Origin: Dictyostelium discoideum
Taxonomy: Eukaryota
DNA length: 64,000 bases
Assembly: GCA_000004695.1 (NCBI GenBank)
Contig: CM000150.2
Location: 4,256,001 to 4,320,000, forward strand
Direction: 5' to 3'
How positions within the stretch are numbered: position 1 is the first letter of the stretch; each line of letters starts with the position of its first letter. The position numbers and the translations under genes are program-made. The notes beneath the pieces were generated by a model. That model saw only the letters and a list, made by a program, of their open reading frames with translations. It searched no databases and was not told the DNA's origin. Below are positions 21,082 to 28,369 of this stretch, piece by piece.

Positions 21082-21826
21082 TATTTACATCATTTTACAA
21101 ATTGAAGTTTTAGTTTGTTTTACTCTTGTATTTATTTTTTTAATTATTTTACTTGTATTAACTAATGGTTTTTTAGAGTCACTATCTTTTGATGGTTTAT
21201 GACTTTGTGGATCTTCTTTTCTTTTAACTATACGAACTGTTTCATTGAAAACTTCTTCAACATTTGTTCTATTTTTAGCGGAAACTTCCATGAATGACAT
21301 ACCTAAACATCGTGCTAAATCTTTACCTTCTTGAAATGTAACTTGTCTTTCATCATCTAAATCAATTTTATTACCAATCATCATTATTGGTACATCATCA
21401 CTATCCAATACACGAATGATTTGTTCTCTAAAGAATTGAATTTGGTCAAATGATGATCTTGATGTAACCGAATAAACCAATATGAAGCCTTCACATGATC
21501 TAATCCATTGGTCTCTCATAGCGGTTAATTCATCTTGACCTGCTGTATCTAATATATCTAACATATAAACTTGATCATCCACCAAACATTGTTTACGGTA
21601 TGAATCTTCAATTGTTGGATCATAATAATAAACAAAATGATTTGAAATAAATTGAATTGTTACTGCTGTTTTACCAACACCACCTTTTAATATTTTTAAA
21701 TTAAATGAAAAAAAAAAAAATTAATATTAATAAAACTTGGAAATTATTTTTATTTTTTTTTATTTTTTACATACCATCACCCATTATACATAATGATATA
21801 ACATTATTATTTTTATAGGAAGTCAT
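21082..21826 (-). CDS. Ras-family small GTPase (rasU–rasZ type paralog) in two exons, 21826..21775 and 21683..21082 on the minus strand.
   Basis: Sequence is [17 protein letters not shown]|[67 protein letters not shown]...[12 protein letters not shown]...SAK...CKMM. It has the Ras G1–G5 motifs and a CaaX box. The phase-1 intron sits inside the P-loop codon, with a GTATGT donor at 21774 and acceptor at 21685-21684. Confidence 0.85.
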
Positions 21827-22114
21827 TTTTTTATTTATTTATTTATTTATTTTTATTTAGTTTAATAATAATTAATTGATTGAATAATTTTAAAATTCTA
21901 ATTTTATTATAATTGAATTTTCTTTTTTTCTTTTTTTAATTTTATGGAAATAATAATAAATATAATTATTTTTTTTTTATTTTTTATTATTTTTTTTTAA
22001 TTAAAATAATAATAATAATTATTATTATTCTTATTTTATTAAAAATTCTCTTTTACTCTATTTTATTCTCTTTTTCTATTTATAAATAATTTGAATTACT
22101 ATTTATTTGTTTGC

Positions 22115-22146
<32 letters not shown>

Positions 22147-22283
22147 TATAATATTTAAAAGGGATAGGTAATTAATTCTATTTAAATAATTTTACAAATT
22201 GTATTTAAATAGGAATAATTTTTAAAAAATTAATTTTTTTTATTTTATTGTAATTTTTTTTAAAAATTAATTCCGGTTTGTTA

Positions 22284-22333
<50 letters not shown>

Positions 22334-22658
22334 TTTTTATTATTGTAATTTTTGTCGTTACAAAAATATTGGGGGGTGGGTGTGATAATAAGATTAAAAT
22401 TAAAAAATCTTTTTTTATTTTTTATTTTTAATTTTTTGTTTTAAATTATATTTTTGTTTTAATTTTTATTATTTTTTTTTTTGTTGATGATTTTATTAAA
22501 TATCTTATCTATTTTTGTTATCTTTTTATTTGTACTTTTTATTGCAAATTTTAAAATAAAAAAAAACAAAACATAAAAAAATAAAATAAAAATAAAAAAA
22601 AAAAAAAAAATAAAAAAAAAATTAAAATGAATAAAAAATAAAGCTTTATATAATAGAA

Positions 22659-22701
<43 letters not shown>

Positions 22702-22835
22702 ATGATCACTTAATTCAGAGAATCAATTTTTTTTTTTTTTTTTCTATTTTTTTTTATTTTTTTAATTTTAAAATTTGGGCAAAATTATGTGAGACTCTCA
22801 ATTAGTTAATAAAAATTTATGATAAATTTTGATAG

Positions 22836-22872
<37 letters not shown>

Positions 22873-23031
22873 ATGTAAAATATTAATAAAAGAGAGGTGA
22901 GCAGTGCTATTATAAATAAACTTTTTTTTCCCCCACTAATTTTTTTTTTATTTTTTAGTCAACTTTTTTTCAGTTATCCAAAACAAACAATGGGGCGAAG
23001 TCATATAGTATTAAAAATAAAATAAAATAAA

Positions 23032-23070
<39 letters not shown>

Positions 23071-23827
23071 GTTCAATCAGTAATTAAATATAATCAAAAT
23101 CTCAAAACACACACTTCCAACTGACGCTGATCAAAAAAAAAAAAATAAAAATAAAAAAATAAAAAAAAAAAAAAAATATAATATTTTTATAGTTGTGGTG
23201 AAAATATTATTAGCCTCCAATCAAAAATCTTTATTAGGAATTCTAGATCACCACACTTTACTTTTTTTTTTTTAATTACTAAGCCGCAAGGTACCTTTTG
23301 TTTATATTTTTATAGTAATGAAATTTTTTAAAAAAAAATAAATATTTGGTTCTTTTTTTTTTTTTTTTTTTTTTTAATGATTTTTATTTTTATTTTTTTT
23401 TTTTTTTTTAATCACTTTTTATTTTTATTACTTTTTTTTTTTTAAAAATTAAATTAATATATTACCGAAAAGGTTTACTTAAAAAATTTACTAAAAATAC
23501 GGAGTTTTAAGTAAGTTCCTTTTTATTTCCAAAATAAAATGATATTATTATTATAATATTTTAATTTACCGATAAAAGATATTTTTTTTTTTTTGATTTT
23601 TATTTTTTTTTTTAATTAATAAATTGATTTTTTTTAGAAAGTTGGAAAAAAAAAATTGGAAAATATCTATAGATATTATTTTTATATACAAAAAATTAAA
23701 ATTCATTCAATTTGAATGAAAAATTATAATTTATAATTTTATTTTATTTATTTACAATATAATATTACATTTATAATTATTATTATTATTATAATCATTA
23801 TTATTATTATTTTTATTATTTTTATTA

Positions 23828-24520
23828 TTTTTACATAACTTTACAAATTTCATTAATTTTTTTTTTTAATGGATTTTTGTTTTTTTTTAATATTTTTACA
23901 TGTTTTGATTTAATTCTATATAATTCTTCTTTTCTTTTAACACAACAAACTGCTTCATGAAAAACTTCATCAATATTTGATCTATTTTTAGCAGAGACTT
24001 CCATGAATGACATACCTAATCTTTGAGCCAATTCTTTACCTTCATGATAGGTAACTTGTCTTTCATTAACCAAATCTGATTTATTACCAATCATCATAAT
24101 TGGTACATCATCTCTATCCAATACACGTATTATTTGTTCTCTAAAATTTAAAACTTGATTAAATGATGATTTACATGTAATTGAATAAACCAATACAAAT
24201 CCTTCACATGATCTAATCCATTGATCTCTCATTGCGGTTAGTTCATCTTGACCAGCAGTATCGAGAATATCCAAAATATATGATTTATCACTAACACAAA
24301 TTTGTTTACGATATGAATCTTCAATTGTTGGATCATAATAATAAACAAAATGATTTGAAATAAATTGAGTTGTTACTGCTGTTTTACCAACACCACCATC
24401 GCCCATAATACAAAGTTGTACAATATTATTTTTATTATTATTATTACAATTATTTTCATTTATAAAATTATTATTATTAATAATAATATTTTTTTTAAAA
24501 TTTTTAATTTTAATTGACAT
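23828..24520 (-). CDS. Ras-family small GTPase paralog, a single exon of 229 aa.
   Basis: Sequence is ...[85 protein letters not shown]...[10 protein letters not shown]...CKVM. The P-loop has no intron. Confidence 0.85.
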
Positions 24521-26540: not shown

Positions 26541-26572
26541 TAATTTTGATTTATTTATTTATTTATTTATAT

Positions 26573-26607
<35 letters not shown>

Positions 26608-26674
26608 TATTTATTTATTTATTTATATTTATTTATTTAAATTTATTTATTTATTTATTTATATTATACAAAAT

Positions 26675-26720
<46 letters not shown>
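26541..26720. repeat. An (ATTT)n-type tetranucleotide array immediately upstream of the Ras paralog whose start is at 26537.
   Basis: The sequence atttatttatttatttatt... carries occasional TATT variants. Confidence 0.85.
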
Positions 26721-26725
<5 letters not shown>

Positions 26726-27223
26726 TTTTTTATATGTATTTTTACAATTTATAGTTATACAATTTATTTTTTTATACAATTGTTTTAAAATTAATGATTG
26801 GAAAAAAAACATTTCTTTTTTATAATGTTTTTTTTTTTTTTTTTTAATCAAACAATTAATTTTCAACGAAAATAAAATTATGAAAATTTTTATTTTATTT
26901 TTTTTATTTTTTTTTTTTATTTTTTTTTTTATTTTTTTTTTTATTTTTGTCACCACATAGTGTTGTCATTTAATTTTTTTGTGTTAATAAAAATAGAATT
27001 ATTAAGAAAAATTTGGTAGTTTCCCGAACTGACATTCAAAAAAATAATTATGAAAAAAAAAAAAAAAAAAATAAAATCTTTGTTTTGCAATGAGAATAAG
27101 TTAATAATTTTCAATCAGTGAAACTACCCTTAATGTAAATGTAACCCCCAAAAAAAAAAAAAAAAAAAAAAAGATAAAAATATAATAAAAAAAAAAGATA
27201 AAAATAAAATAAAATAAAAGATT

Positions 27224-27275
<52 letters not shown>

Positions 27276-27404
27276 ATATTTTTTTTATATTTTTTAATTT
27301 TATTCTTTTGATTATAATTTTATATATTCATTTGCATCATTTCACAAAAGATATTGATGAAACTTGCCCAGAAAAAAAAAAACAAATAAAAAAATTGACT
27401 ATTA

Positions 27405-27468
<64 letters not shown>

Positions 27469-27587
27469 ACTAAAAATAGAATTAAAACAATATTAAAAAA
27501 ATAAAAATTATCTTTACAAGAAATTCAATCAACATTTTAAATTGAAAGAATAATTTAAAATTTTATTTACAAAAGATTTCTATTATA

Positions 27588-27622
<35 letters not shown>

Positions 27623-27626
<4 letters not shown>

Positions 27627-28369
27627 TACATCATTTTACAAATTGATATTTTGGCACCATTTACTTTTTGATTTAATTTTTTAAAGATTGAAGATTTTTT
27701 AGAGTGATCACCTTTACCATCTTTTGAATTATCTTTTTTTAATAATGATTCTTCTCTTCTTTTTACACAACGAACTGTTTCATTGAAAACTTCTTCAACA
27801 TTAAGTCTGGTTTTAGCAGAGACTTCCATGAATGACATACCTAAACAACGTGCTAAATCTTTACCTTCTTGAAATGTAACTTGTCTTTCATCATCTAAAT
27901 CTGATTTATTACCAATCATCATAATTGGTACATCATCTCTATCTAATACACGGATAATTTGTTCTCTAAAGAATTGAACTTGGTCAAATGATGATCTTGA
28001 TGTTACTGAGTAAACCAATATGAAACCTTCACAAGATCTAATCCATTGGTCTCTCATAGCGGTTAATTCATCTTGACCTGCTGTATCTAATATATCTAAC
28101 ATATAAACTTGATCATCTATTAAACATTGTTTACGATATGAATCTTCAATTGTTGGATCATAATAATGTACAAAATGATTTGAAATAAATTGAATTGTTA
28201 CTGATGTTTTACCAACACCACCTTTTTTTAAAAAAAAAAAAATAAAATAAAAAATTAATATTATTAAAACTTGGAATTTATTATTTAAACATAGGTTATA
28301 TTTTTTTAACATACCATCACCCATTATACAAAGTTTAACTAAATTACCATTACTTTTATTTGTTGTCAT
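27623..28369 (-). CDS. Ras-family small GTPase paralog in two exons, 28369..28315 and 28221..27623 on the minus strand.
   Basis: The ORF track reads straight through a stop-free 93-nt intron ([31 protein letters not shown]), placed exactly between GDG and GVGK. It has a GTATGT donor at 28314 and an AG acceptor at 28223-28222. The spliced product is [18 protein letters not shown]|[12 protein letters not shown]...CKMM. Confidence 0.85.

Follow-up and report, generated by a model that had tools for sequence, protein, structure and literature searches.

Ancestry, old losses, and a probable recent gain of a P-loop intron among the Ras paralogs rasU to rasZ of Dictyostelium discoideum

The stretch of DNA considered here, a window of 64 kb with a G+C content of 19.6%, matches chromosome 1 of Dictyostelium discoideum AX4 and carries six paralogous Ras genes, two of which, rasW and rasY, are interrupted by a short intron within the codons for the P-loop. 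Comparison with related genomes shows that this intron is ancestral to the family, that its absence from the other four paralogs is derived and old, and that its presence in rasY is probably the result of a recent transfer from rasW by gene conversion. A tblastn search of the window with one Ras open reading frame (ORF) as the query retrieved rasW, rasV, rasX, rasY, rasU, and rasZ, and the translations of all six genes, after removal of the intron from rasW and rasY, are identical letter for letter to the AX4 proteins. The genes are listed below (nt, nucleotides; aa, amino acids).

21085..21826, minus strand: rasW, with exon 1 at 21826..21775 (52 nt), the intron at 21774..21684, and exon 2 at 21683..21085; the spliced product of 216 aa is identical to AX4 RASW (Q55CC0 / XP_646561.1)
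23831..24520, minus strand: rasV, intronless; product identical to RASV (Q55CB9)
25896..26537, minus strand: rasX, intronless; product identical to RASX (Q55CB8)
27626..28369, minus strand: rasY, with exon 1 at 28369..28315 (55 nt), the intron at 28314..28222, and exon 2 at 28221..27626; the spliced product of 216 aa is identical to AX4 RASY (Q55CB7 / XP_646564.1)
43011..43652, plus strand: rasU, intronless; product identical to RASU (Q55CB0)
44316..44960, plus strand: rasZ, intronless; product identical to RASZ (Q55CA9)

The match to the Ras family of Pfam (PF00071) scores 187.5 bits, compared to a cut-off of 21.6, and the alignment of the six proteins shows the P-loop GxxxxGK[ST], the DTAGQ, NKxD, and SAK motifs, and a C-terminal CaaX box. 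Expression of these genes is weak. The exon–intron structures of rasU to rasZ are already correct in the reference annotation (AX4 RefSeq and UniProt), and it is only their evolutionary history that is new. A literature search on rasU to rasZ returned mentions of the genes and nothing on their introns. Mutants of RasX, RasY, and RasZ have been described as showing no obvious phenotype (PMC6304742).

An initial annotation of this stretch had reported a phase-1 intron of 91 or 93 nt splitting GDG|GVGK in two of the six paralogs and uninterrupted reading through the same codon in the remaining four. Both observations hold, the first in coordinates, lengths, and phase, and the second for each of rasV, rasX, rasU, and rasZ. 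The two introns and the sequence core that they share are as follows.

21684..21774, minus strand: rasW intron, 91 nt, GTATGT...AAG, phase 1, G+C 7.7%; the proposed donor copy
28222..28314, minus strand: rasY intron, 93 nt, GTATGT...AAG, phase 1, G+C 9.7%, in frame and stop-free; the proposed recipient copy
21716..21742, minus strand: intron core TTCCAAGTTTTATTAATATTAATTTTT in rasW, 27 nt, with 0 mismatches
28250..28276, minus strand: the same core in rasY, with 1 mismatch

In each gene, the intron starts right after base 1 of the second glycine codon of GDG|GVGK (GAT G|GT GGT GTT GGT AAA), and the interrupted codon is the equivalent of Gly12 of Ras. At the same place, rasV, rasX, rasU, and rasZ read ATGGGTGATGGTGGTGT[T/C]GGTAAA without interruption. 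The 27-nt core is found in the two introns only within the whole window, with 0 occurrences expected from 100 shuffles, and the global alignment of the rasW intron with the rasY intron scores 5 to 7 standard deviations above that of shuffled sequences. To judge from their sequences, the AX4 introns of rasW and rasY are certainly homologous. They are also judged to be real spliceosomal introns of the U2 type, because they have GT-AG ends and a low G+C content (8 to 10%, compared to 23 to 29% in the exons), because their removal gives AX4 RASW and RASY with a complete Ras domain, and because sister strains carry a frameshift or a stop in the segment that corresponds to the rasY intron. Orthologous introns vary freely in length, from 76 to 135 nt, and contain frameshifts or stops, which is a noncoding mode of evolution. 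Reading through the rasW intron likewise results in a frameshift and stops.

The rasY intron of AX4 differs in that it is in frame, so that the ORF at 27626..28369 extends through it to give 247 aa, including 31 extra residues. The initial annotation had explained these residues as a false insertion due to a stop-free intron with a length that is a multiple of 3, which is correct, although it placed the end of the ORF at 27623 instead of 27626. The contrary view, that the 93 nt are coding and represent either a real 31-residue insertion in the P-loop or a regulated retained intron giving rise to a second isoform, can appeal to the open frame in AX4. However, about 3% of shuffled rasY introns are also free of stops, and the open frame is therefore unremarkable. 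Furthermore, the insertion would break the GxxxxGK motif; the Ras profile, which is matched by the spliced protein from position 1 to 161 of 162, is matched by the read-through product from position 7 to 160 only, with the loss of positions 1 to 6. In two D. cf. discoideum genomes, the rasY ortholog has an intron of 116 nt, which shifts the frame, in one case and of 129 nt, with an in-frame TAA at the third codon, in the other. A coding insertion was rejected on account of the lost profile positions, the frameshift and stop in the sister genomes, a G+C content typical of introns, and the spliced form of the reference protein, and both versions of this view are extremely improbable. The characterization of the rasY intron as an annotation trap is correct insofar as a prokaryote-style ORF caller is misled by it, but the spliced 216-aa models are already the reference, and a search of a collection of 15 billion proteins gave no match to the 247-aa read-through product.

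The history of the intron was traced in orthologous clusters from D. firmibasis (L001), D. citrinum (L002), D. dimigraforme (L003), and two D. cf. discoideum genomes (L004 and L010). The latter two and AX4 are referred to below as the D. discoideum complex. More distant homologs were taken from D. purpureum (L005), Tieghemostelium lacteum (L006 and L007), Cavenderia fasciculata (L008), Polysphondylium violaceum (L009), and Acytostelium subglobosum (L015), and D. discoideum rasD (L011) and D. firmibasis rasU (L014) were added. In a species tree built from 737 aligned residues of a neighboring INTS2-like gene and rooted on D. purpureum, the D. discoideum complex forms a clade with 100% support, D. 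citrinum is its sister with 82%, and D. dimigraforme and D. firmibasis lie outside; a smaller data set agrees with this tree. In the gene tree, all U–Z paralogs fall into one clade (100%), to which the single D. purpureum gene is sister. Orthogroups are supported at 100% for W and V, 82 to 95% for X, and 70 to 78% for Y, the last being backed by synteny as well. The deep nodes of the gene tree have 7 to 52% support and are distorted by concerted evolution, and the order of the orthogroups was not recovered.

The single D. purpureum gene contains a 76-nt GT-AG intron of phase 1 at the same G|GT and adjoins the INTS2-like gene, as does rasY. Since this pro-ortholog shares both site and phase and is sister to the U–Z clade, the Gly12 intron is ancestral to the family and predates the U–Z expansion. 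In rasW, the intron is present at 91 to 135 nt in all seven genomes of the discoideum clade that were examined, among them AX4, both genomes of D. cf. discoideum, and those of D. citrinum, D. dimigraforme, and D. firmibasis. The orthologs of rasV and rasX, the rasZ-like genes of D. firmibasis and D. citrinum, and D. firmibasis rasU, which is the sole rasU ortholog examined, are intronless. The initial annotation had thus been right in attributing the intronless state to loss, but not in describing that loss as recent: absence from rasV, rasX, rasZ, and rasU is derived, and the distribution among orthologs places the losses before the split of D. firmibasis. They may represent one to several events. 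In all intronless copies, the removal is exact and leaves the frame intact. The lost intron was the sole intron of the gene and was located 52 to 55 nt from the ATG. Because it is a single 5′ intron, the 3′ bias and the adjacent-intron signatures of loss by reverse transcriptase are not applicable, nor were they seen.

Compared to these old absences, rasY shows a different pattern. Its intron is present in AX4 and in both D. cf. discoideum genomes. The syntenic orthologs of D. citrinum, D. dimigraforme, and D. firmibasis lack it precisely and read ATGGGTGATGGTGGTGTTGG without interruption. On the species tree, this distribution can be explained by a single gain or else by two or more losses, with three the probable number. 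Under the second of these histories, rasY would have carried the intron since the duplication that separated it from rasW and would have lost it independently in the three outside species, through conversion from intronless neighbors or through recombination with complementary DNA (cDNA), while the similarity of the rasW and rasY introns would reflect later homogenization by conversion. A genome-wide study of Dictyostelium lends such a history some credit, as it counted 441 precise losses in D. discoideum compared to 40 putative gains (Ma et al. 2015, PMC4683709), so that loss is far commoner than gain; the intron-bearing gene of D. purpureum, moreover, occupies a rasY-like position beside INTS2. 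The price would be at least two, and probably three, independent precise losses plus a conversion from intron to intron, where a gain would involve a single conversion event.

The sequences of the introns bear directly on this choice. In MAFFT alignments, rasW and rasY introns within the D. discoideum complex are 77 to 86% identical, and rasW introns within the complex are 87 to 90% identical to one another. The rasW introns of the complex are 71 to 75% identical to that of D. firmibasis, 61 to 77% to that of D. dimigraforme, and 53 to 59% to that of D. citrinum. With homopolymers collapsed, the longest exact blocks common to rasY introns and the rasW introns of the complex measure 19 to 30 nt in most cases. 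The corresponding blocks among rasW orthologs measure 23 to 40 nt within the complex and 9 to 12 nt against the three outside species, the latter being the background level that is also found with D. purpureum. The AX4 rasY intron shares only 12 to 13 nt with rasW introns, owing to a point change in the core. The duplication of rasW and rasY predates D. firmibasis, and vertically inherited introns of the two genes should therefore have diverged at least as much as those of the rasW orthologs; they have diverged less. Judged by pairwise identity and exact blocks, the introns of rasW and rasY would have separated at about the time when the complex diversified, which argues against retention of the rasY intron since the duplication.

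Further evidence comes from the sequence that flanks the intron. A table of flanks was compiled for the W, X, Y, and Z genes and for D. purpureum from five genomes, and one position in it varies with the presence of the intron:

28325..28327, minus strand: isoleucine codon ATA, 8 to 10 nt upstream of the rasY intron; a candidate marker of a co-converted flank

This codon is ATA in all seven intron-bearing copies of the discoideum clade that were tabulated and ATT in nine of ten intronless copies, including rasY of D. citrinum, D. dimigraforme, and D. firmibasis. The change from ATT to ATA in rasY is thus seen only where the intron is present, a second observation that does not favor parallel loss. 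On either side, markers specific to rasY have been kept (AAACTT at –16 and ACATCA at +17), and the transferred tract would therefore have comprised little beyond the intron itself, with about 10 to 15 nt upstream and less than 18 nt downstream. A blastn comparison of the rasY region with the rasW region, in which a longer tract was sought, gave one colinear match of 849 columns at 82% that runs through the intron, with no extended flank identity; the other matches were low-complexity noise.

A tract that is almost exactly the intron could also suggest an RNA intermediate. In that case, the excised rasW intron would have been reverse-spliced into rasY messenger RNA, reverse-transcribed, and recombined into the genome, with no conversion between rasW and rasY at the level of DNA. 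The sequences immediately around the intron site are identical in donor and recipient (GATG|GTGGTGTTGG), which makes reverse splicing into the same site conceivable. On the other hand, the upstream ATA codon covaries with the intron, and together with the direct evidence, described below, that the genes of this cluster undergo conversion at the DNA level and unequal crossover, it makes simple gene conversion sufficient. According to a review of the field, mechanisms of intron gain apart from tandem genomic duplication lack demonstration in vivo (PMC3443670). The RNA route is accordingly very unlikely.

Direct evidence of recombination between the paralogs is provided by synonymous sites. By the Nei–Gojobori method, synonymous divergence (dS) between rasW and rasY of the same genome is 0.22 to 0.29, whereas that between rasW orthologs of different species is 0.36 to 0.49. 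At third positions of codons with an amino acid that is invariant among W, X, Y, and Z, the tree groups genes by species and not by orthogroup, and the mean proportion of differences (p) at these positions is 0.097 for paralogs within a species compared to 0.145 for members of an orthogroup between species. The rasW, rasX, rasY, and rasZ genes therefore evolve in concert through conversion between paralogs. In one of the D. cf. discoideum genomes (GCA_054859205.1), where the Ras cluster has one gene fewer, a single gene of 205 aa (L010 10689-11306) consists of an N-terminal half of rasX and a C-terminal half of rasV. This X/V chimera is the product of an unequal crossover and shows that ectopic recombination takes place in the cluster. 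The orthogroups nevertheless stay distinct by virtue of amino-acid differences and C-terminal hypervariable tails, and the presence or absence of the intron has been stable in five of the six paralogs despite conversion. Concerted evolution of the cluster supplies a mechanism for intron transfer, and we infer that conversion moved an intron as well.

Taken together, the phylogenetic distribution and the sequence of the intron point to the following history. The intron was present in a single-copy ancestor common to group-4 Dictyostelium and D. purpureum. After their split, the gene would have expanded to six tandem paralogs, of which rasW alone kept the intron, while rasV, rasX, rasZ, rasU, and the ancestral rasY would have been intronless before the divergence of D. 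firmibasis. In the lineage ancestral to the D. discoideum complex, rasY would then have received the intron at the homologous site through gene conversion from rasW over a short tract. The recent change at this locus was probably a gain by such a transfer and not a loss. The initial annotation had considered gain the less likely alternative, which for rasY now appears to be the wrong way round, given the intronless orthologs outside the complex and the resemblance of the rasY intron within it to the rasW copy. Comparison with sister species, which the same annotation had named as the means of polarizing loss against gain, has thus returned two different answers: the intron is ancestral and the absences are old losses, but the rasY intron itself was most likely gained.

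Several points weigh against a transfer from rasW to rasY, or against parts of the evidence on which it is based. First, 16% of the bootstrap replicates of the species tree unite D. citrinum, D. dimigraforme, and D. firmibasis in a clade of their own, and there a single loss of the rasY intron would be enough. Second, the neighbor-joining tree of the introns has a topology that fits the transfer, but its key clade, which unites the rasW and rasY introns of the complex, has a bootstrap value of 25%, because the introns provide a short alignment with an A+T content above 90%. Third, divergence of the introns is erratic, in that D. citrinum, the closest outgroup, has the most scrambled rasW intron, at background level, and arguments that assume a clock are therefore weaker. 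Fourth, the co-converted flank consists of one synonymous site, at which the intronless rasZ-like gene of D. citrinum also has ATA. Fifth, because conversion is pervasive in the cluster, repeated erasure of the rasY intron by conversion from rasX or rasZ is less improbable than a count of events would suggest. With regard to the gene structures themselves, the exact RASW and RASY proteins were located on genome contigs only, and no spliced D. discoideum transcript contig was recovered. Pervasive conversion and the poor resolution of the intron tree are also what a history of retention and parallel loss has in its favor; such a history is on balance unlikely, though it keeps an appreciable share of the probability. 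Transfer by conversion from rasW remains the preferred explanation.

One short element within the intron has persisted. Among the rasW introns of five species (L001 to L004 and L010 compared with the window), a TTTCCA island is the sole element kept in all, and it survives in D. citrinum and D. dimigraforme even though the rest of the rasW intron has diverged to background there. In the window, the island is assigned to the core intervals 21716..21742 and 28250..28276. In the D. discoideum complex and in D. firmibasis, TTTCCA is followed by candidate branch sites of the TTAAT type and by a poly-T tract. Retention of the island may reflect constraint. Since the rasW intron has been kept in every genome of the discoideum clade despite pervasive conversion and the island has persisted, it could further be proposed that an element within the intron is under selection, for instance through a role in the control of expression or splicing, and that the transfer imported this element into rasY in the D. 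discoideum lineage. This proposal is speculative and improbable as it stands. If it were true, a recent intron gain through paralog conversion would have had a regulatory consequence, and the event could be re-created by homologous recombination in D. discoideum.

The founding case of intron transfer is reportedly that of the globin genes of Chironomus, said to have been described by Hankeln et al. in 1997. Transfer between paralogs is one of seven mechanisms that have been proposed for intron gain, and a 2012 review accepted three unambiguous cases (Mycosphaerella, Aspergillus, and Chironomus), none of them in Amoebozoa, with transfer not having been shown in vivo (PMC3443670). The event proposed here resembles known intron transfer in several respects: a paralog that had been intron-free at the site comes to carry, at the homologous position, an intron already present in its sister, the donor can be identified by sequence, and the family is tandem and recombining. 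It differs in that the donor intron of rasW is ancestral to the family, and the outcome would thus be the re-gain of a lost ancestral position and not the spread of a novel intron. The transfer from rasW to rasY is most likely a further case of this known but rarely documented mechanism.

The exact removal of the intron from the other Ras paralogs, with the frame intact, resembles the loss by cDNA recombination or gene conversion that has been described for Dictyostelium (PMC4683709). Unlike in that model, the gene has no other intron and the one concerned lies near the ATG, and where tandem genes convert one another, a single loss that was then spread by duplication or conversion would explain the absences equally well. 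As in other tandem families under concerted evolution, synonymous sites cluster by species and dS is lower between paralogs of one genome than between orthologs of different species; unlike in full concerted evolution, amino-acid differences and the hypervariable C-terminal regions of the Ras proteins keep the orthogroups stable.

Few recent intron gains can be traced to a donor. Among the 40 putative gains in D. discoideum, two had a traceable source, and none fitted a known model (PMC4683709). The present locus would provide both the donor (rasW) and the recipient (rasY), a tract bounded to about 100 to 165 nt, and a date after the split of D. citrinum and before the diversification of the complex. 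In addition, it offers independent proof of conversion between the paralogs, in a model organism with efficient homologous recombination. It also carries a caution for surveys of introns, as presence or absence among the paralogs of a converting family is not readable as loss alone. For annotation, there is no consequence, as the reference models are already right. The relevance of the locus may be considered moderate for the field of intron evolution and ordinary beyond it.

In relatives more distant than D. purpureum, the homologs have introns at other positions or lack a P-loop intron. Those of T. lacteum and A. subglobosum have in common an intron of phase 0 that follows the Lys16 codon (GGx AAG|ACT), 13 nt downstream of the Gly12 site. 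The homologs with introns at other positions are the following.

L006 6001-6787: T. lacteum homolog, with the phase-0 Lys16 intron, which is spliced in a T. lacteum transcript contig
L015 2001-2782: A. subglobosum homolog, with the phase-0 Lys16 intron
L009 4001-4730: P. violaceum homolog, without the Gly12 and Lys16 introns; its sole intron lies in the Ala59 codon of DTAGQ

The C. fasciculata homolog is without a P-loop intron, and D. discoideum rasD has three introns, none of which is in the P-loop. In this sample, the Gly12 position is a feature of group 4, and the carriers of the phase-0 Lys16 intron belong to dictyostelid groups 2 and 3. The group-4 intron could have originated by a positional shift of 13 nt or by loss followed by gain nearby.

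The arrangement of the cluster differs among species as well. In D. firmibasis (L001 8536-9180) and D. citrinum (L002 7569-8213), a rasZ-like gene stands directly after rasY in the main cluster and precedes rasX in the former and rasV in the latter. In AX4, rasZ is found beside rasU, about 16 kb away and on the other strand, and the cluster has therefore been rearranged. Two outside copies have altered C-termini. RasU of D. firmibasis (L014 5001-5633) ends in ...SIFRMI, with loss of the CaaX cysteine, and the rasV ORF of D. citrinum (L002 10001-10681) ends in ...NICKSIKL, with the CaaX box displaced and a long, dubious intron added in the deposited model. Both may be decaying copies. Elsewhere in the window, an intron-split gene for a Rab11-like small GTPase lies at 13122..14264 on the minus strand; its exon 1 ends in ...EEYDYLYK, just 5′ of the P-loop, and it is unrelated to the Ras cluster.

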